This document shows, piece after piece, positions 1,224-32,357 of a stretch of 43,333 nt of DNA (within the stretch, counting starts at the first letter, position 1; each line of letters begins with the position of its first letter). A model generated the notes under the pieces. It saw only the letters and a list, made by a program, of their open reading frames with translations, was not told where the DNA came from and did not search any database. The position numbers and the translations under genes were made by a program. The stretch is from IMG/VR virus record IMGVR_UViG_3300022837_000002; one strand, 5' to 3'. The stretch is from a virus.

Positions 1224-1241
1224 ATCCAAAATCTCAACACC

Positions 1242-3597: not shown

Positions 3598-3598
3598 C

Positions 3599-4525: not shown

Positions 4526-4536
4526 ATTCAATAAAT

Positions 4537-4555: not shown

Positions 4556-4577
4556 ATAAACACCAAACAACGGCCTC

Positions 4578-4600
4578 ACCAGCCAAAAACAAGAGCTAAA
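4578..4600 (+). promoter_or_regulatory. 23-nt leader repeat, copy 2, immediately 5' of the RadC-like start
   Basis: Identical to 3575-3597. Confidence 0.6.
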
Positions 4601-4604
4601 AAAA

Positions 4605-5395: not shown

Positions 5396-5423
5396 ACAAA
5401 ATCAGGGATAAAGAGGTAAAAAA

Positions 5424-5633: not shown

Positions 5634-5740
5634 ATGCTGACGTTTAGTATATGGTGAGTAGCCAACCACTAACTGAGCTACGAAGAACAAATGTTTAATC
5701 GGCTATTCACTATATTTTGTGTTAGCATTAGTTAATTATT

Positions 5741-6121
5741 ATGAAAAAGATACTATTAAATTTCGCAGACTATTCAGAAGCTTTGGAATGGAGTGAAAAA
5801 AAAGCAAAGAACTACAAATCAATGAATGATTTTTACACTTCCGATGAATATAAATCAGCATATCCATTGATTCGTAAAATGTATGAGGTAGAGCAAACTA
5901 ATTTTGCAAAAAAAGCCAAGTCAGAACTAAAAAAATCAGGTCTTAAAATATCAGATAAAGTAGTATATTATTTTGTAAGCCCGTTTTTTAATGTTACAAA
6001 TTATTCAGGAAATATTATTGAACGAAATGAAATACCGTATGTAAAATTAGATTTAGGGCAAAAAACAATGTCAGGTAAAAAATCTGTTAGGTGGCATAAG
6101 GGATTCGTGAAGTCTAATTAA
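5741..6121 (+). CDS. hypothetical protein (126 aa)
   Basis: ORF in the co-directional accessory arm. Confidence 0.5.
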   Translation: MKKILLNFADYSEALEWSEKKAKNYKSMNDFYTSDEYKSAYPLIRKMYEVEQTNFAKKAKSELKKSGLKISDKVVYYFVSPFFNVTNYSGNIIERNEIPYVKLDLGQKTMSGKKSVRWHKGFVKSN

Positions 6122-6212
6122 TGCAAAAAAAGAAGTAACCGAACTAACAAAGAAAATTAAATTAGCTCAAACGCTTTGGGCTTAATACAAAACACCAAAC
6201 CAAACCAAACCA

Positions 6213-6452
6213 ATGAACACAATTACAATTCCCGACACGTTAGAAGGCATTAACATAAATATTTATACTAATGCTTTGGAGGTTTACGAAGGTCGTAAAC
6301 TTTTAGGTAGGTTACACACTCACAAACCGAACGTAGTGGCTGAGATAGTTAGACTAGGATGCGCCCAAAGGCACATGACGTACACAGCGACAACATTCCC
6401 GCAAAAGTGCGCTATTCCACCAGCGCCCAAAGGGCTATTTAAGTTTTGGTAA
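6213..6452 (+). CDS. hypothetical protein (79 aa)
   Basis: ORF preceded by the leader acaccaaaccaaaccaaaccaATG. Confidence 0.45.
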   Translation: MNTITIPDTLEGININIYTNALEVYEGRKLLGRLHTHKPNVVAEIVRLGCAQRHMTYTATTFPQKCAIPPAPKGLFKFW

Positions 6453-15738: not shown

Positions 15739-15975
15739 ATGAAAAAGCGTAAGAAGACTGGGGAAGCGGCATTGTTCGCTCATATATGGCAAGAGCGACC
15801 TCACTACTGCTTAGACTGTAGTAAGTGGCTAGGTGATCAAATGAGAACCTTTTTTTTCTCTCACAATAAAAGTAAAGGAGCTTATCCTGAACTTAGACTA
15901 GAACCGACGAATATATCCTTGCGCTGCATGCAATGCCACCACGAGTACGATAGCGGCATAAAAAAAGCCCGATGA
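15739..15975 (+). CDS. HNH-like zinc-finger nuclease
   Basis: Pattern CLDC...FSHNKSKGAYPELRLEPTNISLRCMQCHHEYD, with CxxC and CxxCH pairs around an H-N-H type core. Confidence 0.45.
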   Translation: MKKRKKTGEAALFAHIWQERPHYCLDCSKWLGDQMRTFFFSHNKSKGAYPELRLEPTNISLRCMQCHHEYDSGIKKAR

Positions 15976-15990
15976 TATTTTCACCGGGCT
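15961..15990 (-). terminator. Intrinsic terminator ending the minus-strand late operon
   Basis: Stem gcccg 15967-15971 pairs with cgggc 15985-15989. On the minus strand it is followed by a T-run, the complement of aaaaaa at 15961-15966. Confidence 0.5.
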
Positions 15991-16058: not shown

Positions 16059-19000
16059 TTAATCTAAGCTTATTTCAACTTTACTTTGATTAACCCCGCC
16101 AAGAGCTACACGCTGTTTAGCTTGCTCGTTAGCTAGTCTTGAAATTTGCCTAACACGCTTATCAATCTGTTCATTAGTCATAGTAATTAAATTAGGCTTA
16201 TCAAGTATTATATCTCTGCGTATCTGTCTTCCTGAGTAGTAAATAAAATTGTAATATTGGTTCTCATTCATTACTCGACTCTGCCCTATCAAATCAATGT
16301 AAGACACGCTATTCGGATTAGGCGTAGGAATAAATAGGTTCTTATTTGTTAGAAAGCTAAATACAGGATGCTCTTTTTGAGTGCTGTAAAACCTGCCTAG
16401 CAAACCTTGAGCAGCGCTCCAATCATTGCGTATTGGCTCACCTAAGCGATTTATAACTGGATGCCTATCATTCACCGCAAAGGCTGATGGCGTAGATGCT
16501 GCTATCAATTCCTGAACCGTATCTTTAGTGTAAATTTTTGGGTCAAATATCTGGTTAACACTTCTAAATAAACTAGGCGTTGCTAATCGAACAGGCGTTG
16601 CTAATAGGTCTTTGACAATATTAACTTTTGAAGCGCCCTCTCTACTCACATTTTCTACCAACCTTGCAGCTCCACTAAGAAACGACATATTTAGCATAGT
16701 CTGAGGTATAAGTTTAAAAGCATAAAACAGTCTTGATTGCAAATCTTTATCATCAAGTTCTTTATAACGAACGGCATCTGAGTAATTACCTACAAGTGCT
16801 AAAAGTAAACCAAGTGGACTATCTTTATAGCTAAAATAAGTTTTCCCCATTTGGACAGTATATTCTTTCCAACCCGTTTCACCTAATTGTCTAGCTTTTT
16901 TATAATCAATAGGCCCTCTACCATGTATTCTAAACGATGGCTCATTATCTTCTGGATCATCAGTAAAAGCTATAGCAGCTAACAAAGAGAAAGCAATGGT
17001 TCCTGCCATGTTTTTCATTAAGATAATCTTATGCGCATCATCTAATGAATCATTAACATTGCGACGCTCAACATCGTTTTTAGCGTTCATATAGCGCCAT
17101 AAACCAATAACAGGAACATAATTAACTTGTTCGTTTAACACGTTTGCTACAATCGTAGTGAAAGGAATTGCTCCCAACCTAATTACCGTTGACGCAACTC
17201 TACTATTGGTTTTTTTATCAATTAAATTAAACCCCTGATTTATTCCCAATGCAATAGAACCCATCACCCCCTCTGGTGTTTGATTATATGTTGATGTTAA
17301 ACCAAATTTTACCGCATCTTCTTGCAAACTTTGATCTCTATTACGCTCTATCTGGTCATGCACAAAATGTTTGTAATCCCTAGTACCAGGTTCTAAACCT
17401 GCATTTGACGCTTCAATGTTAGCCTGCTCTCGGAAAGGTTCACCTAAAAGCTCTGAAAACAGTTTTTGCGCATCATCCCCTCGTAAACCTGATTTTTGAA
17501 CGGTTTTAGTAGCGGTGTAGTAAAAACGCATTTCCTCAGCACCTTTAAAAAACAACATATCCGAAGCGGCCATTACCCTACGAGTATATTTAAAGAAAGA
17601 AAGGGCAAATTGCAGTTTACTATCGGAGGTAGCTAACATTTCTAAAGTATCGCCACCCATTTGATCAATCTTCTGTAAACGAGTACCCGTTACAACACCT
17701 GTTTTTAGCACCTTTTCCGCTTCTGGAATACCTTTAATAAACCCTTTAAGAAGGCCTATCATTGGCGTATAACCCGATTTATTAAAAGGATTCATAGCCC
17801 ATAATGAGAAACCATTCAATAAAACATTAGCAAACGTAGAGCCAAAATTTACCACTTGCGTAGGAATACCACTAAGCATATTACTATAGGCAACACTTGT
17901 AGAAATATCCCACCAGCTTATCCCTTTTTGTTGAGCTATAAAACTCATTAGCTCAACCATTTTTTGATCTTTTGCCGAACTATCTACCATTAAGTTAACT
18001 TCTTTAGCCATTTGATCAATTTTGGCTAATGCTTTAGGGTCTGGCGACATTTCTAAAAATCTAGCTAATGAATCTCGTAAATCTGCCTGAGAAAGTGCGC
18101 CCAACCTAGATAAATCCATTAACTCATTAACAAATTTTGAAGCTCTTGTACCACGACTAGCTTTTTCGCCTTTGGTTTTTTTATCCATTTTTTTTAAAAA
18201 GGCTTCAATCTTCTTTTTTCTGGTATCTATAATTTCTTGCTTAAGTGTGGCGTCCACTCGCTCGGCCATTAACTCAGCTTCATTTGTATTCAAACCACCT
18301 TGCTCTACCAACTTTTTAAGTAGCGCCATACGGTTATTGGTATCTACCCCGTAATGATCGGTAATAAGCTCTTTCATTTTCATATCAAGATCAGTAAGCG
18401 CATCACCCATAGCTTTACGGACCAGCTTAACGCTAACTTCTCTATTGTTAAACCCATCAACGAGCGCTAAAGCCTGCTGCTTAACATCCTGTGATAAACT
18501 TTGGTCTTGTTGAATAGTATCGTAAACAGTATCTAAAGCCTCTTGATAACGGTCTGGGTTACGCACTACATCTAATATCATATCTATAGCAGGCCTATTA
18601 CTTTTTTCATTTTTAGTAGTAGGTAACTTAGATCGTATTTCCTGCATTAAAGCATTGGTAAATTCTTGTAGCGGTATGCTAGATGGAGAAGATCCCGCAA
18701 GTTGTTGCATAACGGATTTAGCTATAGCAACACGATAACGCTGCCAAATCCCATCCCCATCTTTTTTATTGTCTCTGTTTGGCTTGGCGCCTGATTCACT
18801 TAATTTCTTTTTTGCTTGGGCTAATTGTCCTTGCAGCCCTGAAAGTTCAAAGTATATTTTATTTATAACATCGTCTAGCTGTCCTAATATTTGTTTCTTT
18901 TGGTCTATTTCAGCTTTAATCCCTTCAATACCGCTGCCTACAGGTCTGCCTTCAAGTTCTTTAATCTGATCGGTTAACGCCTCGATTTGCTTAGTCAAAA

Positions 19001-22000
19001 GCTCTCTTTGCGCCTGCTGGGTATGTAATTCCGTTTCTAGTTGATTATTCGCATCTAAAAGACCGCCTACGGTCTCACTACTGCCCCTGAGCGCTGATTG
19101 TATTTCTGTAATTTCATCCATAAGGGATTTAATCTGCTGCTCTTTAGCGTCTACAACATCTTTACTAACCTGCGTAATTTCGGCATTGGCTGTAGTTATA
19201 TCACCCTCAAGAAGTGGCATAACTCTATTCGCTTTCTTTTGCATGGCCTTCTTAAAAGTAACAACAAAAGCTCTAGGGTTCAGTTTACTAAATATCTTTA
19301 TAGCATTTAAGGCCCTGCCGTACTCACCATAAATACGAGTTGTTTCGTCTACAAAATCCGCTAATTGATCATATAATTGCGATTGTTCTTGACCTTCTGT
19401 GGCATCTATACGCTCTTGATAGGCTAAAACAATCTGTTGAGCAAGCGTAACCCGTACACTATCAGATATTTGCTGTTCTGGATTCTTAACTGTAGCTACG
19501 GCATTTTCAAAACCGACCTTTGCCATAAATTCCCTAGCCGCAGCCAAAGTAAACTCATGCGGTTGACGACGGTAAAAATTACGCATTTCACGCTCGTATG
19601 CTTCACGAGCTTTGGCATCTGGAAGCAAGGCTTCACTCATTTCCTTGTATGTTTGGTGTTCTCCCAACATACCAGCATCTTCACGCTCTTGAAACGCCTG
19701 CTCGCTACCTACACGACCATCATTAGGCTTTACTCTATCTAATACCTCTGTAGCGTTATTAACATCTTCTTCCGTAATTATACCACCTGATAGAAGCTCG
19801 TCAATAGATCGGCCTGAATCATTATTAGCTATATCATCCATATTATCAATAGATACAAAGTCGTTAGCTTCCTGCATCTGTCTAACATGTGATTCAATCG
19901 TAGCATCATCATCAAATAAATTACTATCGTTTCGCGCCCTAATCTGTTGGTAAATAAGCTTTAAATATGGTTGCACCTCAAAGCCTGTTTGCTCAAGCAT
20001 TTTTTGACTAAAAGCGGAAAAAGTTCTAGCACCCGCTTCAATGTGAAAAGCGCCCATTTTAACCAATCTAAATAACTGAACGGGGTCAATCGGTAAACCG
20101 CCAGATATTTTGTTTAAGTCTCGGTTAAAGTCGGCTTTTGTTCGCTCGTAGTCGGAACGGTCGACGATGCTATTGGTTGCTCCGTAGGCATCGGCTTGCG
20201 GTTCGTCAACTTGGCTATTGCCTTCTTCGCCACTAGTTTCTGCTCCCTGCTGCTTTGCGGATCGTCCAGTATTAATTGCGCCCTGTAAGCTAGATTCAAC
20301 GCTTTTAAAGGTCTGTTCATTGGTTTTTTTAATTTGTTCGGTTTGTTCTTTGCTAAAGCCCGCTTTTTCTAAAGCTGCCTCAGCCTGTTCAGCTTTAAAA
20401 AATAAGTCTTGCTCTTTGTCTTTTTCAAAAACACCTTTCTCTTTTTCTATGAGAATTGCTTCTTTTTGCGCTAACCTAATTTGCTCATCTATACCTGCTT
20501 TAACCTTTTGAATGTAATCATTGGTTATTTCCACCTCGCCAAATCCAACTGAACCATTTATTTGACTACGTTGTGCGTTATTGAGTTTTTTTAATCTTTC
20601 CTCACGCTCAGTCCTTAAGTCGTCTACAACTTTATTAGCCTTAAACAATCGGTTATCATATTGACGCTGCATTTCACTACGTCTTCTTTCTAACGCAAGC
20701 GGTTTATCTTGCTCAAAACCAAAATTAACCTTAGTACCAATAAACTCACTAAAAGCGCCTAGACTTCTAAATTTGTCATTATTTTCAGGTTTCATTAAAA
20801 ACTTAAATAACTGATTTTCATGAGAGGTTGTAAGCTGTGAGTACATTTGTCTAACTCGACCAATCCTTTGGCCAATAGACATCATTAAATCCTTGTTATC
20901 GCCTTCTGCGGTTTCTTGGAAATTGCTTATTTCTTTTAATGTATCACCAGTCGTATCTAAATAAGAGAAATCAATCGCCCTAGAAGCAGCGCCAGTACCC
21001 TCAACTATTTTAGCTTTATCCTTAATAGCTTTTTTAGATTCTCCTTTTTCTCTCATTTCTCGATAAACTTTTGCCCTCTCTGATGGGGATTCCAAATCCC
21101 TACCAGTGTTTGATCTAACTGTAGCAAAATTCCTCGCCTCATCTTGAGTTCCGGTTAAAAAACGAGCAGGAGAAGACTCTTTCCCTAATCTTTTCATTGC
21201 TTCAAAACGATGATGGCCAGCTAAAACATAAATTTCACCATCAATATCTTTCCATAAAACAAGCGGGTCTAAATCCACATTGCTAAAATCATCAACAATC
21301 CTTTGAACCTTTTCTTCCTTTAATTTTTCCCTATTTTGGAAAAGCTTTTCATTTGTTCTCATTCTTTCAACAGGTACTAAAACCGTTGAACGATCTACGG
21401 GAAACATTTCGCCATCAATTTCTACTAAATTTTTGGAATCTTCATTTTCTTCTTTATCCAACTCTGTAGTCAACTCTTGATCTAGTAAAGTTTCTTGCTC
21501 AAGTTGTATCTCAGGACTTAATTCAGCTTCTGTCTGTACCTCATTATCTACCTGTACCTCATTATCTATTGGTATTGGTAGCATTGGTATAGACTCTGTG
21601 AATATCTCAGAAGAAGCAATATCAACCACCGCTTCATCATCTGTTAGCTCTGATATAGGTTCGTTTTCTTGTTCAGTTTGCGTTAAATCATTCAAGGATT
21701 CACTCTCGCCTTGAACATGATCTTCTAACGCCTGTAAACCACTAATAACATCTTGATCCGTTATTTCAGATTGACCGTTACTAATTTTTGCACGGCTTCT
21801 TTTTAATGAAGACACAATTATACCACCTGCGAAACCGATCACTCCACCCGCTCCGCCCGCTTCCATAACACCGTCTAAAAGTTGCCTGGATTCATCATAT
21901 TTTTTTTGTGCTACAAGATTCGTTAAAGATGATTGAAGCGTTTCCTGCATTAATTCCTCTAAACCACCTTGAAAACCATCGGCTAATATCTTAGCTGATT

Positions 22001-22928
22001 TATTCCCACTTAAGCGGTTAATACTATTAGCTATACCAGCAACACCCATTTTAGAAGCCACTTTTTTCATAGCACCGCTAGTCATAGCACCACCTCTAGC
22101 AAGTACTCTATTGGTTGGAATAGCTTCTGTAGAACCAATCATCCAATTATACACTTGCGCCTCAAAAGCATCTTGCTGTGTTGCACCCGATTTTATAGCG
22201 TTAGCGTATTCTTCGCCACCCATTGATGAAGAACCTAAAGCTAAAGCTCCTACTCCACCACCAGCCGCCCCTGCTAAAACAAAAGCGCCAAAAGAACCAA
22301 CGCCTTGAGGTACTACACTCAGCCAAAAACTTTCTTGCAATTCAGGGTTTGTAGGTAAAGCGTTTTCAAGACCCTTACCTATTCTATCCCCTAATTGAAA
22401 AAAATACCTCTCTTCGGGTTTCTGCTTTGAAACATCTACATCCTCGCCACCCGTAGCCTTGCTTAAAAACCGCTGTAAGCCAGCCGATACTAAAGCCGCT
22501 CCGTCAAGACCGTTGACTACACTACCCGCAATGCCAGGCATATTCTTTAAAACCGTTTTAGCTAGACCTGGTTTATCATCACCAGCCAAAATACGTTCAC
22601 CCTTATCGGCCAAGCCCGCTTGATTATAAGCAAGGCTTTGAGTAAAGGTTCTTGCAAACGATTGTATAGTACTGTTTGCAACATTTTTAAAACCGCCTAT
22701 TTCATTAGCATCCTGTTGCTGTTGTTCAGGCTCTGAAAAATACACACTTTGAAAACTAGAAATATCCTCACCCATACCCGTATAGCCCGATTCTTTTAAT
22801 CGGTTGTATAACAAGGTTTGGTTTTTTTCGGTTGAGAACGTGCTTTTAAAGCTCTCGTAATCGCCTAATCCAGTTACCTCATTTATTTGCAACTGTTTAT
22901 GCAATAATTCTAATTTGTCGGTAGACAT
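16059..22928 (-). CDS. giant virion-associated polyvalent protein (2289 aa) with a ParB/Srx-like nuclease domain
   Basis: ParB core LVLWKDIDGEIYVLAGHHRFEAMKRLG is encoded at about 21195-21260. N-terminal glycine-zipper segments (GAFVLAGAAGGGVGALALG, GGAGGVIGFAGGIIV), a long central coiled coil, and a hydrophobic C-terminal region of about 900 aa. It is the last gene of the structural operon. Confidence 0.7.
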   Translation of the reverse strand: MSTDKLELLHKQLQINEVTGLGDYESFKSTFSTEKNQTLLYNRLKESGYTGMGEDISSFQSVYFSEPEQQQQDANEIGGFKNVANSTIQSFARTFTQSLAYNQAGLADKGERILAGDDKPGLAKTVLKNMPGIAGSVVNGLDGAALVSAGLQRFLSKATGGEDVDVSKQKPEERYFFQLGDRIGKGLENALPTNPELQESFWLSVVPQGVGSFGAFVLAGAAGGGVGALALGSSSMGGEEYANAIKSGATQQDAFEAQVYNWMIGSTEAIPTNRVLARGGAMTSGAMKKVASKMGVAGIANSINRLSGNKSAKILADGFQGGLEELMQETLQSSLTNLVAQKKYDESRQLLDGVMEAGGAGGVIGFAGGIIVSSLKRSRAKISNGQSEITDQDVISGLQALEDHVQGESESLNDLTQTEQENEPISELTDDEAVVDIASSEIFTESIPMLPIPIDNEVQVDNEVQTEAELSPEIQLEQETLLDQELTTELDKEENEDSKNLVEIDGEMFPVDRSTVLVPVERMRTNEKLFQNREKLKEEKVQRIVDDFSNVDLDPLVLWKDIDGEIYVLAGHHRFEAMKRLGKESSPARFLTGTQDEARNFATVRSNTGRDLESPSERAKVYREMREKGESKKAIKDKAKIVEGTGAASRAIDFSYLDTTGDTLKEISNFQETAEGDNKDLMMSIGQRIGRVRQMYSQLTTSHENQLFKFLMKPENNDKFRSLGAFSEFIGTKVNFGFEQDKPLALERRRSEMQRQYDNRLFKANKVVDDLRTEREERLKKLNNAQRSQINGSVGFGEVEITNDYIQKVKAGIDEQIRLAQKEAILIEKEKGVFEKDKEQDLFFKAEQAEAALEKAGFSKEQTEQIKKTNEQTFKSVESSLQGAINTGRSAKQQGAETSGEEGNSQVDEPQADAYGATNSIVDRSDYERTKADFNRDLNKISGGLPIDPVQLFRLVKMGAFHIEAGARTFSAFSQKMLEQTGFEVQPYLKLIYQQIRARNDSNLFDDDATIESHVRQMQEANDFVSIDNMDDIANNDSGRSIDELLSGGIITEEDVNNATEVLDRVKPNDGRVGSEQAFQEREDAGMLGEHQTYKEMSEALLPDAKAREAYEREMRNFYRRQPHEFTLAAAREFMAKVGFENAVATVKNPEQQISDSVRVTLAQQIVLAYQERIDATEGQEQSQLYDQLADFVDETTRIYGEYGRALNAIKIFSKLNPRAFVVTFKKAMQKKANRVMPLLEGDITTANAEITQVSKDVVDAKEQQIKSLMDEITEIQSALRGSSETVGGLLDANNQLETELHTQQAQRELLTKQIEALTDQIKELEGRPVGSGIEGIKAEIDQKKQILGQLDDVINKIYFELSGLQGQLAQAKKKLSESGAKPNRDNKKDGDGIWQRYRVAIAKSVMQQLAGSSPSSIPLQEFTNALMQEIRSKLPTTKNEKSNRPAIDMILDVVRNPDRYQEALDTVYDTIQQDQSLSQDVKQQALALVDGFNNREVSVKLVRKAMGDALTDLDMKMKELITDHYGVDTNNRMALLKKLVEQGGLNTNEAELMAERVDATLKQEIIDTRKKKIEAFLKKMDKKTKGEKASRGTRASKFVNELMDLSRLGALSQADLRDSLARFLEMSPDPKALAKIDQMAKEVNLMVDSSAKDQKMVELMSFIAQQKGISWWDISTSVAYSNMLSGIPTQVVNFGSTFANVLLNGFSLWAMNPFNKSGYTPMIGLLKGFIKGIPEAEKVLKTGVVTGTRLQKIDQMGGDTLEMLATSDSKLQFALSFFKYTRRVMAASDMLFFKGAEEMRFYYTATKTVQKSGLRGDDAQKLFSELLGEPFREQANIEASNAGLEPGTRDYKHFVHDQIERNRDQSLQEDAVKFGLTSTYNQTPEGVMGSIALGINQGFNLIDKKTNSRVASTVIRLGAIPFTTIVANVLNEQVNYVPVIGLWRYMNAKNDVERRNVNDSLDDAHKIILMKNMAGTIAFSLLAAIAFTDDPEDNEPSFRIHGRGPIDYKKARQLGETGWKEYTVQMGKTYFSYKDSPLGLLLALVGNYSDAVRYKELDDKDLQSRLFYAFKLIPQTMLNMSFLSGAARLVENVSREGASKVNIVKDLLATPVRLATPSLFRSVNQIFDPKIYTKDTVQELIAASTPSAFAVNDRHPVINRLGEPIRNDWSAAQGLLGRFYSTQKEHPVFSFLTNKNLFIPTPNPNSVSYIDLIGQSRVMNENQYYNFIYYSGRQIRRDIILDKPNLITMTNEQIDKRVRQISRLANEQAKQRVALGGVNQSKVEISLD

Positions 22929-22943: not shown

Positions 22944-23690
22944 TTAGTTAGAATCGTTGGTTATATCGCTTAAATCAAATTTTTTATTTGGTTGCAACGA
23001 ATCTACTTGTGCAGAACCATAATCTGGGTATTGACTTCTAATAATCTGCCCCTGCAAAATTGTATAGCGTCTTATAACATCAGAATACTCTTGCATTTCT
23101 TGCTTAGCTGAGGCTTTCATGGCGTCGCTAATTGATCTATCCGTAGATTCAGTAATACGTTTCGCATTATTGTATAGCTCTTGATATTCAGGTATAGATT
23201 CGGTAATGCGAAGTATATTATCAGATAGAGTATCTGAACCGCCACCGCTTGCAAATGGATTTCCACCCGCTGCCAGTTGTTTTTCTACAAATGATATTTT
23301 TTGCTGTAGCTCCTTTGTCTGATTATTAACCAATTCAGTCTGCGCCTGTGTTAATCCACCTTGTTTATTTAACATAGCCTCTCTAGCTTTACTAAATGAA
23401 GTGCTAGCATCATTTGCTTCAATAGAGCTAGTTTGTTGACGAAGAATATTGTCAGCCTCTGTTTGGTAAAAATCTTGATCTCTAGTTGAATTTAATTCTT
23501 GCTTTTCTCTCGTTTCTTGATTTAAAGCATTTACTCTTGATTCAGACAAGCTCTCTTGAGCCTTAACCAATTTATCTTGAACCTCAAGTTGTTTAGCTCG
23601 AAAATTTAAGTCTCGTACTTGCTGAATACGGCCTTCTGTAAACTGTCGCTCTCTAGCAAACACATTAGCAATACTTTGACCAAAATTCAT
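22944..23690 (-). CDS. coiled-coil virion protein (248 aa), possibly an internal or ejection protein
   Basis: Q/E-rich coiled coil. Position is immediately upstream of the giant gene. Shine-Dalgarno aaggggg. Confidence 0.4.
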   Translation of the reverse strand: MNFGQSIANVFARERQFTEGRIQQVRDLNFRAKQLEVQDKLVKAQESLSESRVNALNQETREKQELNSTRDQDFYQTEADNILRQQTSSIEANDASTSFSKAREAMLNKQGGLTQAQTELVNNQTKELQQKISFVEKQLAAGGNPFASGGGSDTLSDNILRITESIPEYQELYNNAKRITESTDRSISDAMKASAKQEMQEYSDVIRRYTILQGQIIRSQYPDYGSAQVDSLQPNKKFDLSDITNDSN

Positions 23691-24166
23691 TATTTACCCC
23701 CTTCTGCTAACAAGCCTTTTAAATCTCTATTAGATTGGCTCATAAAGCCATAGTTAAGCAAGGATGTAACCCCTCCTGTTATGCCCGCATCAATCGCTCC
23801 TGCGCGTAAACCCTTATAGCCTAGCTTAGTATTCTCTAATTGACCCAAAGCGCCCATACGCTGCCCTTCTAGCCCTCGCATGGTTTGAGTTATCTGCTCT
23901 TGAGATTGAGATTGCTGGTCCTGGTTAATTTCGTCCATCAAATTAGCATTGGCTGAAACGCCTTGTCTATTTAAAGAACGATTTATATTGCTATAGCCTT
24001 GATTAGCGCTAATAATTCGCTGCAATAATGGAGCGTAATAATCAGGGTTCTGCAAGGCACTAATCTGATTGTTCAAACTATCTGGAACCTTAGCATTTCG
24101 GGCCCCAAGTAAGCCACCCAATAAAGAACCACCCACTCCTATAGCTGTTGATGCTATTAAACTCAT
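23690..24166 (-). CDS. glycine-zipper membrane-active virion protein (158 aa), possibly an ejection protein
   Basis: N-terminus LIASTAIGVGGSLLGGLLGA. ATGA overlaps link it to its neighbours. Confidence 0.4.
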   Translation of the reverse strand: MSLIASTAIGVGGSLLGGLLGARNAKVPDSLNNQISALQNPDYYAPLLQRIISANQGYSNINRSLNRQGVSANANLMDEINQDQQSQSQEQITQTMRGLEGQRMGALGQLENTKLGYKGLRAGAIDAGITGGVTSLLNYGFMSQSNRDLKGLLAEGGK

Positions 24167-25176: not shown

Positions 25177-26340
25177 TTAAAGTTTGTTCACGTAAGCTGA
25201 AAGCGCCCAAAAATTCTCACCATCGCCAGACGTCGGAATAACTAAAACCTGCGTAGCGTTTAACGGTACGCAATATATTTTCCCATTAGGGGCTAAAACA
25301 CCGCCATAATATTTAGATGTTCCACTAATTGAGCCAAATAATTCTGTGGTATTATCGGTCGGGTCAATTACTAAAATCTGCGTAGCGGTCTCAGGTACAC
25401 AATAAATTTTTCCATTTGGCGCTAAAACGCCACCAATGTATTTAGATGTTCCACTAATTGAGCCAAATAACGCTGTCGTGTTATCGCTCGGGTCAATTAC
25501 TAAAATCTGCGTAGCGTTACGAGGTATACAGTAAATATTCCCATTAGGCGCTAAAACTCCTCCAGAATATTTTGTGAATCCGCTAATTGAGCCAAATAAT
25601 TCTGTGGTATTATCGGTCGGGTCAATTACTAAAACTTGCGTTGCGTTATCAGGTACGCAATAAATTTTTCCATTTGGCGCTAAAACGCCGCCAGAATATT
25701 TTACTGCTCCCGTAATTGAGCCAAATAACGCTGTCGTGTTATCGCTAGGGTCAATTACTAAAATCTGCGTAGCTTCACGAGGTATACAGTAAATCTTCCC
25801 ATTAGGAGCTAAAACTCCTCCTTGGTATTTAATTGCTCCCGTAATTGAGCCAAATAACGATGTCGTGTTATCGCTCGGATCAATCACTAAAACTTGTGTA
25901 CCGCTAAACGGTACGCAATAAATCTTCCCATTTGGCGCTAAAACACCGCCATAATATTTATTTGTTCCACTAATTGAGCCAAATAATTCTGTGGTATTAT
26001 CGGTCGGGTCAATTACTAAAATCTGCGTAGCGTTACGAGGTACACAATAAATCTTTCCATTTGGGGCTAAAACCCCGCCAATATATTTTAGTGAACCGCT
26101 TATTGAGTCAAATAGCTTTGTACCATTCGCATAATCTACACTTGCACTTAAACTTAACCCATCAAGTGGATTAACCCTAGTTTTTTTGCGCTCAAAATTA
26201 GTTTTAAGCGTTGCGCCAGTTACGTAAACCGTCTTATTTGCGTCAACTGTTGCAGTCGAATCATACGCTACTAGTCTATCTGCATCTGCAAAAAAACCCG
26301 TTTTCTGGACTAATAAACCCTCTATCGTTGTATTTGACAT
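25177..26340 (-). CDS. beta-propeller-like repeat protein (7 x 43-aa repeats), candidate receptor-binding or tail-fibre tip protein
   Basis: The unit LFGSISGTxKYxGGVLAPNGKIYCVPxxATQxLVIDPxDNTT repeats from aa 76 to the C-terminus. Confidence 0.6.
   Translation of the reverse strand: MSNTTIEGLLVQKTGFFADADRLVAYDSTATVDANKTVYVTGATLKTNFERKKTRVNPLDGLSLSASVDYANGTKLFDSISGSLKYIGGVLAPNGKIYCVPRNATQILVIDPTDNTTELFGSISGTNKYYGGVLAPNGKIYCVPFSGTQVLVIDPSDNTTSLFGSITGAIKYQGGVLAPNGKIYCIPREATQILVIDPSDNTTALFGSITGAVKYSGGVLAPNGKIYCVPDNATQVLVIDPTDNTTELFGSISGFTKYSGGVLAPNGNIYCIPRNATQILVIDPSDNTTALFGSISGTSKYIGGVLAPNGKIYCVPETATQILVIDPTDNTTELFGSISGTSKYYGGVLAPNGKIYCVPLNATQVLVIPTSGDGENFWALSAYVNKL
25215..26115. repeat. Tandem 129-bp coding repeats (about 7 units)
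   Basis: gagccaaataattctgtggtattatcggtcgggtcaattac recurs at 25331, 25589 and 25976. The offsets, 258 and 387, are multiples of 129. Confidence 0.85.
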
Positions 26341-27497: not shown

Positions 27498-30133
27498 AAA
27501 GTTATATTACTTTCAATAAGACCATATTTATCTAAAATACTAAGCAAGTTCTCTAAAGACGCTTGTATTGCATCTAATCTAAGTTCACTTACTCCATTTG
27601 TAGGCACACTAATAGTTATAGTATGAGGTTTAGAAGTGTGAGAAAATGAACCAGATTGACCCCAGAATTGCATGCCATTTGTTGAAGAGTTTACAGACAA
27701 GTTATTTGAATTACCAAAAGATGCTATATCTTGTTCTCCAAATATTGACAACAAAGTCTTAGCGCTTGATGCCCCCTTAAAGTCTATTTTTCTGCCATCA
27801 AACGCTACCACTCCATTTGTTTGGGAAAACCCTCCCGAAGACCCAAAGTTTATTCCACCATTAGTTACATTAAGCTGCCCATCTGTATCGATCGTTAAAG
27901 CGCCACTAACCGTAAGGTCGCCTAGCGAGCCGCTTGTTGCATTTATCTCACCTTTAATAAAGGCAGAGCCATTTGATAATACTCGGATATTTGAGGTAGC
28001 TGTGGTTTGACCTGCTTCCCCAGCAAAAAAACCTGCTGTACTCATTACAGCGCCACCATTTGTACCGTTTAAAGCGCCTTCAACAGTTTCAAATCTACCT
28101 TCTGTACCTGTGAACGTGACTGCTTCAACTATTTTACCTTTACCTATTAGTAAATCATCACCATTGTAATGTATAAACTTTTTACCTTTACCAACAGCAA
28201 ATTGATATTCATTACTAGCTGCGCCCAAATAAAAGCCCGAGCCTGTACCAACCAAGCTTGGCTCGTAAGAATTACCACGAATAAATCCATTCCCACCGAC
28301 AATAATTCTATCATTGACAGTTAAAAAGCCTGTTGTTGCTCTAAGACTAGATAAATCATCTCCTATAATCTTATTGGCGTTAATTGAACCTGTTTGGAAA
28401 TCGCCATCTACAATGAGAGTAAATTCTCTTATCCATGCGCTACCATCCCATACGTGGGGTAAATTCCTTGCTACACCGCCTACCTGCGTATCTTTAAGCC
28501 ATCTATCGCCAATGACATACGTTCCTCCTGTTGGGGCTGTGGCTCCCTTATATAATGCTATACCGCTAAATGTGCTACCATCAACAGCGTTAGCTACATC
28601 ACTAATAAATGTTGAATTACCAACAACAATAGCCGATACCGCATTTATTACATCTGCGTTTAGCTCGTCTGTTGTAACGCTATTATTTGTTAAACGACCA
28701 CCGTCAATCGTTGTTGTACCGTCATCGTTTATGCCACCAATAAGGCTATTAATAAACGTGGCCTTACCAACAAGATAGATATCATCAGCGCTTATCTTAA
28801 TGTTATTTGTTGGGTTATCTCCACTAATAGAATTTAAGGCTATGCTAACAACATTATTGTCATCAACACTTGCCGTTAAAACTTGCGTAGCTTGAATGGT
28901 AGTTACCGCTTGGACAAGCCCAGTACTACTATCGCCAACTGCACTAGTTAGGTCAGCCGTAGCCTTTCTCAATCCTGTCGTATTATCCTCACCAACCGAT
29001 AAGTTTAATGCCGTTATAGCTGCATTAGCAGTATTCAACGCACCTAGCGAAGCTTTTAGGTCGATTTCGGCTTCATTGGCGCTGACTCTACCTGTTATAT
29101 TCGTATTACTCGCTATCCCATTATTAGTAAATACTGTATTTATTGATGCTATTGCACCCACATTACTAGTGCTTAAATTAAATGCGCTTGTTGCGGTGCC
29201 ATTTGCACTTTGAGCAAAAATAAGGACTTCACTCGGCTGAACTAATAATTGAGCTTGATAGAAAGCATTATCAAACAGTACTTTTGCGCCTTTATACGCT
29301 ACAATATACTGCGACTGAATCGGTATAGACGTAGCGCCAGCACGTGTTAGTGCTGAAACAACAATATCATAAACTTCCCTTCCCGAAACTAACATTAATC
29401 TAGTGCCAGCTGGTAAATCGACCCTAAGCGGCATTGTCGTATATGCGCTCAGACTAGTAACTTCTGCGTCAATATCCGCCCCTAATTTTAAAATAGCATT
29501 AGCGTTAAAGCCTCCTATTATTTCATTCAAAGCTGCATCGTTGTCAGTATTTTTTGCTGCAAATAAACCAGTCGCTATCTGCTTCGGGAAAACGCTTACA
29601 AAAGGTGCGGCAGGGTCTGAAATTCTATCTACATTTGTGTTTTGAACAACGCTAAAAAGCTCGGTATAATTTACGATGTCGTAAGCCTCATCTGAATCAA
29701 GCCATGCCTCCAAGGTCTTACTAGTGATTGTATTGCGGGCTTTATCATAGTAAAAAATACGGGGTTCAGGGTCTTGCTCTGTGTAATCAATTTCATAATC
29801 ATATTGGCCGTCAGCAACCGTAAATCGTGTTCGATCTCTTAGAATGACTTGAATATCAGACCACTCAACAAGAACATCCGTCTGTATGTTTGTAACCTCA
29901 ATTGCGCCCACCACTTCTTTTACTTCTACGGGTCTAACTAAGGCTTGTGCGGTAGACCTCGCTAAAGAAGCTAATTGGCCAGCTCGATTAGCGAAATCAG
30001 TAGCGTTTCTCGCTTTAATATCATTGGCTTCTAACACATCATAGATTCCATCTACAATACGCTGCTGCTCGGCATTAAATGAGCTAGTATTTTGTGGGCG
30101 TAGCGGGGTTCTCTGGTTTCTATTCTTCGACAT
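27494..30133 (-). CDS. tail fibre / tailspike-like protein (879 aa)
   Basis: Size, G/N/T/S-rich beta-rich C-terminal two-thirds, and position in the tail gene block. Confidence 0.5.
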   Translation of the reverse strand: MSKNRNQRTPLRPQNTSSFNAEQQRIVDGIYDVLEANDIKARNATDFANRAGQLASLARSTAQALVRPVEVKEVVGAIEVTNIQTDVLVEWSDIQVILRDRTRFTVADGQYDYEIDYTEQDPEPRIFYYDKARNTITSKTLEAWLDSDEAYDIVNYTELFSVVQNTNVDRISDPAAPFVSVFPKQIATGLFAAKNTDNDAALNEIIGGFNANAILKLGADIDAEVTSLSAYTTMPLRVDLPAGTRLMLVSGREVYDIVVSALTRAGATSIPIQSQYIVAYKGAKVLFDNAFYQAQLLVQPSEVLIFAQSANGTATSAFNLSTSNVGAIASINTVFTNNGIASNTNITGRVSANEAEIDLKASLGALNTANAAITALNLSVGEDNTTGLRKATADLTSAVGDSSTGLVQAVTTIQATQVLTASVDDNNVVSIALNSISGDNPTNNIKISADDIYLVGKATFINSLIGGINDDGTTTIDGGRLTNNSVTTDELNADVINAVSAIVVGNSTFISDVANAVDGSTFSGIALYKGATAPTGGTYVIGDRWLKDTQVGGVARNLPHVWDGSAWIREFTLIVDGDFQTGSINANKIIGDDLSSLRATTGFLTVNDRIIVGGNGFIRGNSYEPSLVGTGSGFYLGAASNEYQFAVGKGKKFIHYNGDDLLIGKGKIVEAVTFTGTEGRFETVEGALNGTNGGAVMSTAGFFAGEAGQTTATSNIRVLSNGSAFIKGEINATSGSLGDLTVSGALTIDTDGQLNVTNGGINFGSSGGFSQTNGVVAFDGRKIDFKGASSAKTLLSIFGEQDIASFGNSNNLSVNSSTNGMQFWGQSGSFSHTSKPHTITISVPTNGVSELRLDAIQASLENLLSILDKYGLIESNITL

Positions 30134-32357
30134 TAGGCAACCTCACTCTAAAATAAACGCTATCTATTGTCTCAAAATAAGCCAGTAAAAGCTGAACAGA
30201 TTGTACTTTCACGTTATTCACAAAGCGTATAACATGCGTATCTCCGTCCGAAGTAAGTGTTACCGCTGTATTACCACCGCTAGGAGTTAGTTCTATCCAA
30301 TTTCCCCCATCAAATCGGTAAGAAATACTCTCCCCTCGTGCGATATTTCCGCTATGAATCTGCCCTCGAATAATAGCTTCATATAACCAAAATTCCCCGT
30401 TATCGCTATTAAATGTGTAATCGTATGTTACTAGGACTATTGGCTCGCTATCATTGCTACTAAACATCTCAACCAGCTTTGGACCCGTAGAGACATATAA
30501 ATTGGAATCCATTATAGCTGAACCTTTTATCGTGGTATTATCCACCGATAATGAGCCTGAATAAGGCACGTAAAAATCCCATCTTTGGCGCGAGAAATCA
30601 TACATCCATGCTTTGCACTTAGTGCTATTGTACTGGCCTAAAATACACAACCGCCCTTCTCTAGGGTCATAGGCTAACTGCATAGAATTGCGCCTAGCTT
30701 CGGTTATATCTCTATAACCTACATTGGAAGAGTACCCACCGCTATGTACAGAGCTGCTAATGGTAGTTATAGCTGAGCCTGTGTTCAAATAAATCCCGCT
30801 ATGATCTGCGTGGCAAATACCGTAAGGCGTTGCACATACGTGATTCTGTGAAATTGCGCCAAAGCCGTCAAACTCACTCTCTATGTATAATCCAGCCGGA
30901 TTTATTCTATATGTTTTACTCTCTGTATATGCGTAAAGTCTACTCTCAAAAGTAGCTATAGCTGTAACGGGTTCAGGTAGCTGAATAAAATCATTCAGTA
31001 TATTAAATGAGCTAGGCGATCCCGCAACACTTCTAAAAATTAAACCTTCTGTAGTGTCGAAAAATCTGTTAGTACCAACACCCGAAACAAAAAGGTACTC
31101 ATTTACTTTAACGCCTTGCGTGTAATTTAATCCATTTTCTTCTAGCGTCTCGGGAATACCGCTATTACTCTCGTATGTAGCGCCTGCAAAACCATCATCA
31201 TAAAAACTTATAGACTTAACGCCACCGCCAGCCTCGATATTCGGCATGGTTTCAGTAGCTCTGCCACTGAGCCTAAAATCTGCCACAGCCCTAGATTGCC
31301 ATTTTTCCGTTTGCTTTTCATCATCAAAAGAAAAAAACTTGACAAACTTAAATAATTCTTCTGGTGTACTTTCTAAACTTGACGCTTCGGCTCGATAAAT
31401 ATTCACGCCCGTTACGCGGTGGCTCATGCCATTAGGGTAATCATTTAACCCATTGGTGTAAGAAGTTGGTGGAAATGCTATAAATAACTCAACCTCTATG
31501 CCTAGTGCATTTTGAGCTAATTTAATAGTATTAAAATATGAAACTCTAGATCGACCGTCTCCGCGTCGCGTTTCAGATGTCTTTTCTGAATAACTTCTAA
31601 TTAAAGGGCTTTCTTGATACCCGTCATAAATAAGACTAACAGCGTAAGCGTAACTTTTACCCTCTTTAAATACGGTTAGCATCGTTTCATCATCCGTAAA
31701 CTCATAAACTTTACCTACCCTAGAAAATGTATCGACGCTATCAGTTACCGTACCATCACGAGAAATAATTCTATTTACTTTAGTACCACTAGATATAAAC
31801 GAAATAGCAACTTTTTCTAAATTGGTAGGGTTACTGTCATCTGTACTTACTTGTCTATAGGCACCTTCTTCCACATGATAAATATGCCCTTCTACATTAA
31901 TAAAGGCATTTAGTTTATTATCCTCGATGAAATAGCCGTCAACCGTACCATTCAAAACCTTTCTATCTATATAGCTAATATGCTTGGTTGAATTTACCTT
32001 TCCACAAGTAGCAATAAGCCTTCCATCTATCGGGATAAACTGCTGAACCTGAGTTGTATTTGGTGTACTACCTACGTCGGTAATCGCCGCTCCGCTATAT
32101 AATTTAATAGCGCCAGACGAATAATTTTGGCCAATAATCTGCTGCTTTGCTTGCGCTAAAAATGTACCCAACACATCAGCCACAAAATTAGTTGAGTTAG
32201 CAGCATCAGGGCTACCGCTAACCGCGCGCACTTGCCCAGATAAACCGCTATCGGCATTTTCTGCAAATGGATAAAATCCTTCTCTAGGGTCTCGCTCGGA
32301 AGCGTTTAGTAATATCCCTTTGTCAAAGTTAGTTATCTTGAGTAGGCGCTTGGGCAT
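30120..32357 (-). CDS. large tail protein (745 aa), possibly nozzle or tail tubular B-like
   Basis: Size and order relative to the capsid genes in podovirus-like modules. No motif confirmation. Confidence 0.35.
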   Translation of the reverse strand: MPKRLLKITNFDKGILLNASERDPREGFYPFAENADSGLSGQVRAVSGSPDAANSTNFVADVLGTFLAQAKQQIIGQNYSSGAIKLYSGAAITDVGSTPNTTQVQQFIPIDGRLIATCGKVNSTKHISYIDRKVLNGTVDGYFIEDNKLNAFINVEGHIYHVEEGAYRQVSTDDSNPTNLEKVAISFISSGTKVNRIISRDGTVTDSVDTFSRVGKVYEFTDDETMLTVFKEGKSYAYAVSLIYDGYQESPLIRSYSEKTSETRRGDGRSRVSYFNTIKLAQNALGIEVELFIAFPPTSYTNGLNDYPNGMSHRVTGVNIYRAEASSLESTPEELFKFVKFFSFDDEKQTEKWQSRAVADFRLSGRATETMPNIEAGGGVKSISFYDDGFAGATYESNSGIPETLEENGLNYTQGVKVNEYLFVSGVGTNRFFDTTEGLIFRSVAGSPSSFNILNDFIQLPEPVTAIATFESRLYAYTESKTYRINPAGLYIESEFDGFGAISQNHVCATPYGICHADHSGIYLNTGSAITTISSSVHSGGYSSNVGYRDITEARRNSMQLAYDPREGRLCILGQYNSTKCKAWMYDFSRQRWDFYVPYSGSLSVDNTTIKGSAIMDSNLYVSTGPKLVEMFSSNDSEPIVLVTYDYTFNSDNGEFWLYEAIIRGQIHSGNIARGESISYRFDGGNWIELTPSGGNTAVTLTSDGDTHVIRFVNNVKVQSVQLLLAYFETIDSVYFRVRLPNVEE

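Follow-up and report, generated by a model that had tools for sequence, protein, structure and literature searches.

Position of the giant gene and genome context

The window (the whole 43,333-nt stretch of viral DNA analysed here) contained on its negative strand an ORF at 16059..22928 that starts with ATG and encodes in 6870 nt, 15.85% of the window, a protein of 2289 aa, hereafter the giant; its parts are all given below on that strand. An AAGGA sequence precedes the ATG by ~11 nt, 15 nt past the stop of the preceding gene. The giant gene is the final gene of the negative-strand virion block, which starts with a P22-like portal gene (38004-40301) and a gene for an SU10-type major capsid protein, both of podovirus types, and also holds a lysozyme gene. 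A terminator-like hairpin at 15966..15990 (-), with a 10-bp stem including 6 GC pairs followed by a T-run, sits 3' of the giant's stop codon and would close this late operon. Copies of the gene 99% identical to it, with the reading frame intact, were found in three other metagenomes (one 44.8-kb JGI contig and two IMG/VR contigs); relative to the JGI ortholog, 22 codons differed synonymously and 22 non-synonymously, and the indels were in-frame only. An earlier note on this DNA had described a single gene of about 16% of the genome, at the virion-operon end and in the position held by ejection or internal-core proteins in podoviruses, and these data agree with it. Its early-operon genes were also found, i.e., ArdC-N+MPTase at 3599-4525 and RadC at 4605-5096. 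An integrase gene at 7364-8521 indicates that the phage is temperate.

The two genes next upstream of the giant (22944..24166, -) encode candidate partner ejection proteins, as suggested by their translations and synteny: one of 248 aa, Q/E-rich and helical-looking, and one of 158 aa with Gly-rich hydrophobic ends. Neither presented family matches in profile searches. The 158-aa protein is homologous to the product of a 249-aa gene two positions upstream of the giant's minimal ortholog P0012, so that synteny is kept. The earlier note had described three small glycine-zipper or coiled-coil proteins here; of these, only the 158-aa protein has the Gly-rich hydrophobic ends, and the third, of 210 aa, is neither Gly-rich in this way nor Q/E-rich and helical-looking.

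Domain organization of the giant protein

The N-module (aa 4-430, 21639..22919) is Gly/Ala-rich and a predicted membrane anchor, as judged by hydropathy, co-occurrence and a motif match to phage N4. Its two hydrophobic segments, aa 201-231 (nt 22236-22328) and aa 354-375 (nt 21804-21869), correspond to the glycine-zipper-like membrane segments previously proposed. The motif at aa 320-374 aligned to residues 387-441 of the N4 gp50 N-terminal domain with 33.9 bits, versus at most 13.5 in 2000 shuffles, and by hhalign with a probability of 84% (E 7.6e-6); the likeness is limited to this 55-residue motif and includes a high composition-bias term. No significant similarity was detected between the N-module and the N-terminus of P-SSP7 gp16. 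Next to the N-module is an acidic low-complexity linker (aa 431-514, 21387..21638) without family matches; it contains an NEVQVD repeat where isolates differ by a 6-aa indel (aa 455-460 relative to the ortholog).

Profile searches and structure modelling confirmed aa ~515-640 as a ParB/Srx domain (core at nt 21009-21386), followed by a subfamily-specific helical extension to aa ~760 (20649..21386 in all). The core motif GEIYVLAGHHRFEAMKRLG (aa 564-582, nt 21183-21239), which includes G571-H-H-R574, lies where the earlier note had placed it, near nt 21200-21240. The domain matched the profile phrog_1033 (E 8e-14), and the PHROG matches included 'ParB-like partition nuclease' families; TIGR00180 (parB_part, E 1.2e-5) and Pfam ParB_N (14.5 bits) matched under their curated cut-offs. 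Among PDB sequences the domain matched Spo0J (5e-5), in an alignment spanning Box I to Box III, and sulfiredoxin (1.5e-4). The AF2 model had a block-mean pLDDT around 90 or above over most of the core, with the helix-turn-helix region after it modelled poorly. All Foldseek matches of this model in the PDB were ParB, Noc, PadC or Srx structures (E 8e-5 to 7e-4 and probability 1.0 for each of the best 19); sulfiredoxin superimposed with a TM score of 0.75 and an rmsd of 2.7 Å. The Pfam search gave no match to the DdrB-like ParB model, the type typical of polyvalent proteins, and found no MPTase, MuF or LPD domain in the giant.

The nucleotide-pocket positions G-x-x-R, Q-x-R and N...R are kept in the giant, in P0009 and in gp43 of Salisaeta icosahedral phage 1 (SSIP-1). 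Relative to Spo0J, GERR is changed to GHHR and the Box III 'EN' to 'SN'; the residue preceding the Gly of GHHR is Ala in the giant, whilst P0009 has Ser there and SSIP-1 gp43 has Gly, in no case Asp. The Glu of the 'EN' box is the catalytic residue of the ParB CTPase, and Asp belongs to the DGHHR motif of nuclease-type domains. With the former replaced by Ser and the latter by Ala, neither activity is therefore readable from the sequence.

Three helical segments follow. In a long helical hairpin or coiled-coil spacer (aa 741-896, 20241..20708), AF2 placed helices at residues 237-286, 299-351 and 356-392 of the modelled segment, and heptad-like stretches were found at aa 744-791 and 813-840. 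M1 (aa ~910-1022, 19863..20201; AF2 pLDDT about 90) is a small helical domain recurrent in giant phage proteins (phrog_10089 'DarB-like', phrog_938), which matched aa 1966-2063 of Sinorhizobium phage PBC5 gp22 (E 3e-20) and was present in 21 of 80 IMG/VR relatives. M2 (aa ~1062-1300, 19029..19745) had phmmer matches to many family members, precedes the C-module in most of them and occurred in 52 of the 80 IMG/VR relatives; heptad-like helices are located at aa 1239-1328. The more than 600 aa of coiled coil claimed earlier was an overestimate, since a crude heptad scan gave ~330 aa and a large part of the middle is made up of conserved helical modules.

The hydrophobic C-terminal region of ~900 aa noticed before turned out to be a conserved all-alpha C-module (16104..18731) formed by an extension (aa 1400-1629) and a core (aa 1630-2275) with two hydrophobic helices (aa 1913-1931 and 1968-1986). 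The alignment with P-SSP7 gp16 (hhalign probability 97.8%, E 8.6e-13, 404 columns) shows that this module is homologous to that ejection protein. Its AF2 model (pLDDT 74, pTM 0.69) had no fold match in the PDB, and its sequence had no match in Pfam, PHROGs or the PDB; the BFVD matches included polyvalent proteins and, from marine T7-like phages, 'internal virion proteins', among them those of S-CBP3, S-CBP2 and a pelagiphage. Comparisons with T7 gp16, T7 gp15, the N4 gp50 C-terminal domain and phi24B gp47 detected nothing, these being single-sequence hhalign runs and weak tests.

Relatives of the giant protein

The C-module was found in at least 1,915 cluster representatives (E<=1e-3), nearly always C-terminal, in phage proteins of 600-6000 aa. 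In all 62 complete ORFs it formed the C-terminus or lay near it, followed by no more than 50 aa in 51 of them and never by more than 253 aa. With 2289 aa, the giant is close to the median of this family and not of exceptional size. Of 158 family proteins, at least 25 have both the N-module and the C-module, as do 18 of 80 IMG/VR loci. A homolog holds the same late-operon position in relatives L001, L003, L005 and L015, and the 8 kb upstream of the homolog was more than 80% co-directional in 46 of 57 IMG/VR loci. The record of one named relative was deposited as Podoviridae and includes a P22-type 'stabilization protein'.

Three minimal relatives (P0011, P0012 and P0016) align colinearly with the giant except for aa ~430-1108, which they lack. 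One of these, the syntenic 1315-aa protein P0012 of locus L015, lacks the ~680-aa stretch holding ParB, and by this comparison the acidic linker, ParB/Srx domain, helical hairpin and M1 were shown to form an insertion between the N-module and M2, which we regard as putative cargo. The ParB type of the giant was present in only 3 of 80 family loci (IMG/VR), and 14 large relatives bear ART-PolyVal, Kinase-PolyVal, MuF_C, LPD23, ddrB-ParB, RadC, Acb1 and DarB-type helicase or methylase domains.

Proposed function and alternative explanations

The gene probably encodes the large internal-virion (ejection) protein of this phage, of the T7 gp16/IVP-D class as in P-SSP7 gp16, with a ParB domain as cargo, i.e., a delivery chassis plus an insert. 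The sequence comparisons showed the predicted chassis to comprise the Gly-rich, membrane-inserting N-module, M2 and the ~650-870-aa C-module. The function of most of the protein, left open in the earlier note, is thus narrowed to an ejection-protein chassis with inserted cargo, and homology and synteny support that note's view of the giant as an injected polyvalent protein: the C-module homology to P-SSP7 gp16, the hallmark PolyVal domains in C-module carriers and the N4 motif in the N-module. From these we infer packaging and ejection. The giant would be packaged in the capsid and expelled at infection through the short tail with the small upstream proteins. The N-module, and perhaps also the two hydrophobic helices of the C-module, would insert into the inner membrane, as has been shown for the N-terminal domain of the N4 vRNAP; the ParB domain would then refold at the cytoplasmic face, held by the linker precisely where the phage DNA enters. 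There it may bind a nucleoside triphosphate, through its G-H-H-R phosphate motif and the Q-x-R and N...R boxes, together with DNA, an activity that would stay off in the capsid, which is free of NTPs, and start in the cytoplasm. As for its precise role, likewise inferred, holding or protecting the incoming genome is favoured over nuclease action.

Nuclease action is nonetheless a possible, if rather unlikely, role: the protein would be delivered in the same way and ParB would be an NTP-regulated DNase or nickase that degrades or nicks host DNA, or nicks the phage genome to start replication. The G-H-H-R of the giant resembles the (D)GHHR of nuclease-type ParB domains, and the partition-nuclease families among the PHROG matches point the same way. 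Iyer et al. reviewed ParB domains that nick DNA or act as DNase or NTPase (Osa, Bce_0392, GmrS) and predicted such a role for those in polyvalent proteins (PMC5512222). Against this, Asp does not precede the Gly, the DdrB-like model did not match, the best sequence and structure matches were CTP-binding ParB/Noc and ATP-binding sulfiredoxin rather than nucleases, and a nuclease packed beside its own phage genome would require tight control.

It is improbable that ParB acts inside the capsid, holding one end or loop of the packaged genome on the internal core, organising the DNA spool and linking the release of proteins to that of the DNA, without any enzymatic function in the infected cell. 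ParB domains are DNA-associated, the catalytic Glu of the CTPase box is missing, and in the pre-ejectosome of cyanopodophage A4 a ring of genomic DNA is bound by ejection proteins (PMC12002296); but the conserved pocket positions argue for a ligand absent from capsids, the rarity of this ParB type in the family implies no general requirement in core assembly, and the minimal syntenic ortholog does without it. Very improbable is a late cytoplasmic protein outside the virion, e.g., a ParB that segregates a plasmid-like prophage or organises replication. The parB_part match and the temperate nature of the phage would suit it, but a scan of the larger ORFs in the window revealed no ParA-type ATPase, the integrase makes a partition system unneeded, relatives swap ParB for ARTs, kinases or helicases, and the domain forms part of a 2289-aa polypeptide that also has membrane segments and a gp16-like module and is encoded at the end of the structural operon. 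A conventional tail tape measure, an identity raised in the earlier note, is large, helical and late in the structural module like the giant but is hardly credible here, given that no tape-measure, tail-tube, sheath or chaperone family was found in Pfam, PHROGs or NCBIfam, that the portal and capsid proteins are of podovirus types, that the C-module has a homolog in the ejection protein of a podovirus and that the named relative was deposited as Podoviridae with a P22-type 'stabilization protein'.

Comparison with known systems

The probable ejection protein described here resembles gp16 of the Prochlorococcus phage P-SSP7 (1245 aa) in its homologous C-terminal module, its Gly/Ala-rich hydrophobic N-terminal region and its place as the large last member of an ejection-gene cluster (PMC8954989). 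P-SSP7 gp14, gp15 and gp16 are listed as ejection proteins, and gp16 homologs keep membrane-spanning elements (PMC8954989). The assignment of P-SSP7 gp16 itself started from 'synteny and size'. Unlike the giant, P-SSP7 gp16, a protein half as large, lacks any ParB or M1 insertion, and its N-terminus has no detectable homology to the N-module; P-SSP7 belongs to the T7-like phages of lytic type and encodes an RNAP of its own, whereas the portal of the window phage is P22-like, its capsid protein is SU10-type and it has an integrase.

[quoted passage not shown] Its N-terminal domain, which shares the N-module motif, inserts into nanodiscs and, by way of the linker, keeps the ejected enzyme attached to the inner membrane (PMC13434306). 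Hardies et al. counted the C-terminal domain of N4 gp50 as an IVP-D homolog (PMC4819975), but it has no detectable similarity to the C-module; the N4 cargo is an RNA polymerase instead of ParB, and its packaging and ejection were shown by experiment, whereas for the giant they are predicted.

The closest phage ParB was that of SSIP-1 gp43 (2319 aa), with the same subfamily extension and 30% identity over 220 aa (E 3e-18). This is also a very large multi-domain protein, annotated as a virion structural protein, and its ParB_N scores above the Pfam cut-off; it differs in a ParB near the C-terminus, a DNA methyltransferase domain and the lack of N-, M1-, M2- and C-modules, and SSIP-1 is listed without tailed-phage taxonomy. 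The ParB of the giant matches chromosomal and plasmid ParB/Noc/PadC (CTP-binding) and sulfiredoxin in fold and nucleotide-pocket motifs; unlike ParB/Noc/PadC, it has no found ParA partner and no clear helix-turn-helix or dimerisation domain, and it is embedded in a predicted membrane-associated virion protein.

The phage polyvalent proteins (P1 DdrB and DarB, H66 gp60, phi24B gp47) are likewise giant multi-effector proteins of late operons, predicted or shown to be packaged and injected (PMC5512222; PMC4819975; bioRxiv 10.64898/2026.04.10.717836). Their hallmark PolyVal domains are borne by relatives of the giant, and M1 also occurs in the 'DarB-like' giants of phage PBC5. Unlike them, the giant has only one recognisable enzymatic domain, a ParB that is not DdrB-like, and lacks MPTase, MuF or LPD Pfam matches; phi24B gp47 has no similarity to the C-module. 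IVP-D homologs host domains destined for the cytoplasm (PMC4819975) and ParB domains occur in phage polyvalent proteins (PMC5512222). Since both ejection proteins hosting cytoplasmic domains and ParB-bearing polyvalent proteins are already published, the giant would join a known kind rather than represent a new system.

Gene, operon and conservation

The giant protein is encoded by an uninterrupted ORF with an ATG start (2289 aa, 16059..22928, negative strand). Its 6870 nt represent 15.85% of the 43,333-nt window, as the earlier note had estimated in assigning about 16 percent of the genome to this single gene. The start codon follows the end of the preceding gene by only 15 nt and has an AAGGA sequence ~11 nt before it, and a terminator-like hairpin is present 3' of the stop. 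A 99% identical ortholog of 2284 aa was found on a 44.8-kb JGI metagenome contig, and two further copies on IMG/VR contigs. The giant and the JGI copy differ by 22 synonymous and 22 non-synonymous codons, and the indels are all in-frame; the gene is real and under selection. Through these contigs, essentially the same phage recurs in three metagenome assemblies besides that of the window (JGI 3300025425, IMG/VR 3300005933 and 3300025502); among the copies, the NEVQVD repeat of the acidic linker varies by a 6-aa indel (aa 455-460). For half of the window there was no megablast match among GenBank phages, tblastn of the whole protein matched only five phage records, and a word-index protein search retrieved nothing with the ParB segment and a single relative, P0009, with aa 480-1100. 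Two scans of GTDB genomes gave no relatives that could point to a host.

The giant is the last gene of the virion operon, a negative-strand block extending from 40301 to 16059. The operon comprises genes for a P22-like portal (Pfam, 4e-46), an SU10-type major capsid protein, three proteins of 745-879 aa with no family assigned and, at its end, three small proteins followed by the giant. Searches of PDB and NCBIfam with the neighbouring 745-879-aa and small proteins gave no match. PADLOC gave no match either. Within the operon, a 138-aa lysozyme-like protein (35223-35639, negative strand) matched the endolysin, 'baseplate hub/tail lysozyme' and 'internal virion lysozyme motif' PHROGs (E 6e-16 to 8e-11). 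T7 bears a muralytic function on gp16; in the window this function seems to be encoded by the separate gene at 35223-35639. A 387-aa protein (25177-26340, negative strand; Pfam DUF6923, E 2e-11), encoded in the operon ahead of the three small proteins, is probably a propeller-like receptor-binding or fibre protein; it presents seven near-identical repeats of ~38 aa, with the unit GGVLAPNGKIYC[VI]P..ATQ[IV]LVIDP[ST]DNTT.LFGSI[ST]G..KY.

The rest of the window includes genes for an integrase, DnaB, RuvC, TerL, an ArdC-N+MPTase-PolyVal protein and RadC; the phage is a temperate, podovirus-type one without a close GenBank phage relative. TerL and RuvC share the positive-strand block 545-2747 / 3599-6452 with ArdC-N/MPTase-PolyVal and RadC, and this block is separate from, and divergent to, the portal-to-giant operon (16059-40301, negative strand). 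Because TerL and RuvC lie in the same block, the 'early operon' to which ArdC and RadC had been ascribed is not established. The ~850 nt (2748-3598) between TerL (1242-2747, positive strand) and the ArdC-N/MPTase gene (3599-4525, positive strand) lack any ORF reaching 41 aa and gave neither a tRNA nor an Rfam match; this interval could be an attachment region, the border between transcription units or a pac/cos region. Across the window, GC skew is most negative at 1000-3000 (-0.42).

Homology of the C-terminal module to podovirus ejection proteins

A phmmer search with aa 1400-2289 against 1.84 billion cluster representatives gave 1,915 matches at E<=1e-3, of which 739 reached E<=1e-30; nearly all lay at the extreme C-terminus of proteins of 600-6000 aa. 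The same region had no match in Pfam or PHROGs. The AlphaFold model of this C-module, built from 31 sequences, was mostly helical (pLDDT 74, pTM 0.69). Its fold was not matched in PDB (best E 0.09), and sequence searches of PDB, single or profile, returned nothing. Against predicted viral structures, two groups were matched with E values of 1e-15 to 1e-7: polyvalent proteins with MuF_C, ART-PolyVal, LPD3 or nuclease domains, and 'internal virion proteins' of the Synechococcus phages S-CBP3 and S-CBP2, a pelagiphage and a Prochlorococcus podovirus.

Profile-profile comparison (hhalign) aligned the C-module with gp16 of the cyanophage P-SSP7 over 404 columns (probability 97.8%, E 8.6e-13), the two having in common motifs such as GP.D...R..L...GW.PYS.K.G..Y.SY. 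In P-SSP7 the accepted ejection proteins are gp14, gp15 and gp16 (PMC8954989), and Hardies et al. placed gp16 in the extended T7 IVP-D family of internal virion proteins, a link that rests on their analysis (PMC4819975). The C-module profile gave no signal with P-SSP7 gp15, nor with T7 gp15, T7 gp16, the N4 gp50 C-terminal domain and phi24B gp47, the last four being weak, single-sequence tests. Besides this homology to P-SSP7 gp16, the giant resembles the gp16/IVP-D class in position, being the largest and last gene after small proteins in the late operon, and in its predicted membrane-spanning segments at aa 201-231, 354-375, 1913-1931 and 1968-1986 (from hydropathy only). The first two are the Gly/Ala-rich hydrophobic N-terminal segments described in the earlier note.

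Two other candidate functions were rejected. No tape-measure, tube, sheath or chaperone match was obtained for the protein or its neighbours in Pfam, PHROGs and NCBIfam, so that the conventional tape measure admitted in the earlier note as a possible outcome did not materialize. A virion RNA polymerase was discarded as well, for there was no match to a polymerase family in Pfam or PHROGs.

Family members and polyvalent relatives

Fourteen large C-module proteins were inspected with Pfam. Their domains were ART-PolyVal (three members), ddrB-ParB (two), Kinase-PolyVal, MuF_C, LPD23 and RadC (one each), AAA_34 + Helicase_C_4 (four), ResIII (six), Acb1 (two) and 2',5'-RNA-ligase-type (two), as well as Eco57I and N6_Mtase methylase domains; a DdrB-like ParB in the relatives P0025 and P0014 was not confirmed by Pfam. 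The giant thus shares its C-terminal chassis with polyvalent proteins. It has no hallmark PolyVal or LPD Pfam domain itself; it lies among late genes and carries one enzymatic-type domain (ParB) and the helical domain M1, common to DarB-like giants.

A scan of IMG/VR yielded 115 relatives, and 80 loci were retained. The 62 complete ORFs ranged from 1104 to 3922 aa (median 2372), and the window protein is unexceptional in length among them. In all 62 the C-module was at or near the C-terminus, followed by at most 50 aa in 51 of them and by no more than 253 aa in any. Of the other modules, M2 was present in 52, M1 in 21 and the N-module in 18 of the 80 loci, and the ParB type of the giant in three, two of which are the same phage; in the third, L045, ParB is again upstream of M2. 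The upstream 8 kb was more than 80% co-directional in 46 of 57 IMG/VR loci, and in four annotated contexts (L001, L003, L005, L015) a homolog closes the late operon, with an endolysin next in two. Most of the relatives (L020-L097) present, immediately upstream, an ORF of 400-580 aa tightly coupled by overlap or a gap under 25 nt, which may encode a partner of the gp15/gp20 type. For the window and L015, the gene upstream of the giant or its homolog is only ~248 aa long.

Modular organization of the giant

Three relatives of 1220-1315 aa (P0011, P0012 and P0016) are colinear with the giant across the N-module (aa 4-430), M2 (~1109-1230) and the C-module (~1587-2275). The locus of P0012, L015, is also syntenic, containing homologs of the window's 745-aa (30120-32357) and 158-aa (23690-24166) proteins; apart from these two, the loci of distant relatives showed no similarity to other structural proteins of the window. 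Because of this colinearity and synteny, the giant corresponds to the minimal ejection protein with two additions: an insertion of ~680 aa (aa ~431-1108) and a longer helical spacer before the C-module. The insertion contains the acidic linker, ParB, a helical hairpin and M1, a helical domain of ~110 aa that the giant has in common with the 'DarB-like' giants of Sinorhizobium phage PBC5. The coiled coil of more than 600 aa proposed in the earlier note was too high: a crude heptad scan gave ~330 aa, and the middle of the protein holds conserved helical modules.

The N-module profile matched aa 158-442 of gp50, the N4 virion RNA polymerase, at 33.9 bits; among 2000 window shuffles that preserved composition, the highest score was 13.5. 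With hhalign, aa 320-374 of the giant aligned with N4 387-441 (84% probability, E 7.6e-6). The motif in common reads approximately EE..Q......N..AQ....D....L..GV, with a hydrophobic, Gly-rich stretch after it. PBC5 gp22 was also matched by the N-module profile; P-SSP7 gp16 was not significant. One relative, P0054 (2675 aa, metagenomic), presents an SLT_3 lysozyme domain at 65-151, the N-module at 597-921, ParB at 976-1098 and the C-module at 1780-2587; the chassis is the same, headed here by a muralytic domain like that of T7 gp16, and N-module, ParB and C-module follow one another as in the window protein.

The ParB/Srx domain

The ParB assignment made in the earlier note was borne out by the modelled fold, and profile matches were significant by E-value. 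The PHROG 'ParB-like partition protein' (phrog_1033) matched the giant with an E of 8e-14, and the PDB sequences matched were Spo0J (5e-5), sulfiredoxin (1.5e-4) and then Noc, ParB, SerK and SbnI. Two models fell below their curated cut-offs, TIGR00180 (E 1.2e-5, 25.2 bits against 58.45) and Pfam ParB_N (14.5 bits against 26.3). When aa 505-1110 were modelled with AlphaFold, block-mean pLDDT was ~90 or above over most of the ParB core, and the fold was the alpha+beta one of the ParB/Srx group: the top Foldseek matches in PDB were exclusively ParB, Noc, PadC, Srx, SerK, SbnI and KorB (probability 1.0), sulfiredoxin superposing with a TM of 0.75 and an rmsd of 2.7 A.

The core motif quoted in the earlier note, GEIYVLAGHHRFEAMKRLG, corresponds to aa 564-582 (nt 21183-21239). 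It includes the phosphate-binding G-x-x-R signature with its invariant Arg, G571-H-H-R574, which aligns with GERR of Spo0J and GCHR of sulfiredoxin and is also kept in P0009 and in gp43 of Salisaeta icosahedral phage 1 (SSIP-1). Likewise, 'FQNR' of the giant aligns with the 'QPR' box and 'SNTGRDL' with 'ENLQREDL'; since GHHR, FQNR and SNTGRDL all align with ParB boxes, the nucleotide-pocket positions are largely retained. The Glu of the ParB CTPase box serves hydrolysis; the giant has Ser at its position. A Pfam scan of the whole giant gave no match at E<=1 to ddrB-ParB (PF18763), the form typical of polyvalent proteins. After the core, the region at the position of the helix-turn-helix and dimerisation domains was poorly modelled and is followed by unrelated modules. 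A partition ParB of the ParABS kind was rejected: no ParA-type family was found among the window ORFs of 200-400 aa scanned, an integrase is present, and no helix-turn-helix or dimerisation domain is clear after the core.

The nearest phage relative of this ParB is SSIP-1 gp43 (2319 aa, L017 2864-9823; 30% identity over 220 aa, E 3e-18), which is listed in GenBank as a virion structural protein and also has a DNA methyltransferase domain. The two ParB domains belong to one subfamily and share a helical extension, which reaches about aa 760 in the giant; unlike that of the giant, ParB_N of gp43 is above the Pfam cut-off. The taxonomy of the SSIP-1 record is 'Viruses' only, with no tailed-phage lineage, so gp43 would be a polyvalent-type protein outside tailed phages.

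Proposed role and comparison with known systems

These results support, with corrections, the interpretation of the giant as an injected polyvalent protein. It would be packaged in the virion and expelled through the short tail; its hydrophobic segments may then anchor it in the inner membrane, presenting ParB to the cytoplasm at the site of DNA entry, where NTP, absent from the capsid, would switch it on. We favour a ParB that would hold or protect the incoming DNA, because its closest matches are the NTP-binding ParB/Noc/Srx proteins and the nuclease-type Asp is absent. Iyer et al. (PMC5512222) proposed for such domains a role in nicking or degrading DNA, a rather unlikely alternative here. 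That ParB acts only inside the capsid is very improbable.

A more specific joint reading, which we regard as quite unlikely, makes ParB a CTP/NTP-gated DNA clamp at the ejectosome and the C-module a general packaging-and-ejection chassis. Attached to the ejectosome at its inner-membrane end, ParB would close on the emerging genome's leading end and hold, ratchet or shield it against RecBCD-type and restriction nucleases. If so, such a 'DNA-entry clamp' would be a use of the ParB switch not known from any virus, and the C-module (~650 aa, at least 1,900 clusters) would let phages plug in arbitrary cytoplasmic effectors.

The giant offers a concrete example of how a temperate short-tailed phage may deliver, right where the genome enters, a domain that binds DNA in a nucleotide-dependent manner. 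Of greatest use among the new points is the link that the unmodelled C-module (at least 1,915 clusters) makes between marine T7-like gp16 and polyvalent anti-defence proteins; the module could be a handle for mining metagenomes for injected effectors. The value is that of incremental annotation and sharper hypotheses: the concept is already published and no new principle is involved. Virion-delivered polyvalent proteins bearing ParB have been described (PMC5512222), and a giant polyvalent protein of podovirus phi24B was detected by proteomics and proposed as an ejection protein (bioRxiv 10.64898/2026.04.10.717836). Ejection proteins with cytoplasm-destined domains are also published, the IVP-D homologs hosting the N4 vRNAP and the H66 gp60 methylase (PMC4819975). 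The giant adds to these a member with a rare, non-DdrB ParB cargo on a P-SSP7-gp16-type chassis, from a phage lineage without a cultured relative. In N4, the N-terminal domain of gp50 inserts into nanodiscs and contains helices that span the membrane (residues 224-278); it is connected to the enzyme by a low-complexity linker, and the enzyme, anchored at the inner membrane, regains its fold in the cytoplasm (PMC13434306). [quoted passage not shown]
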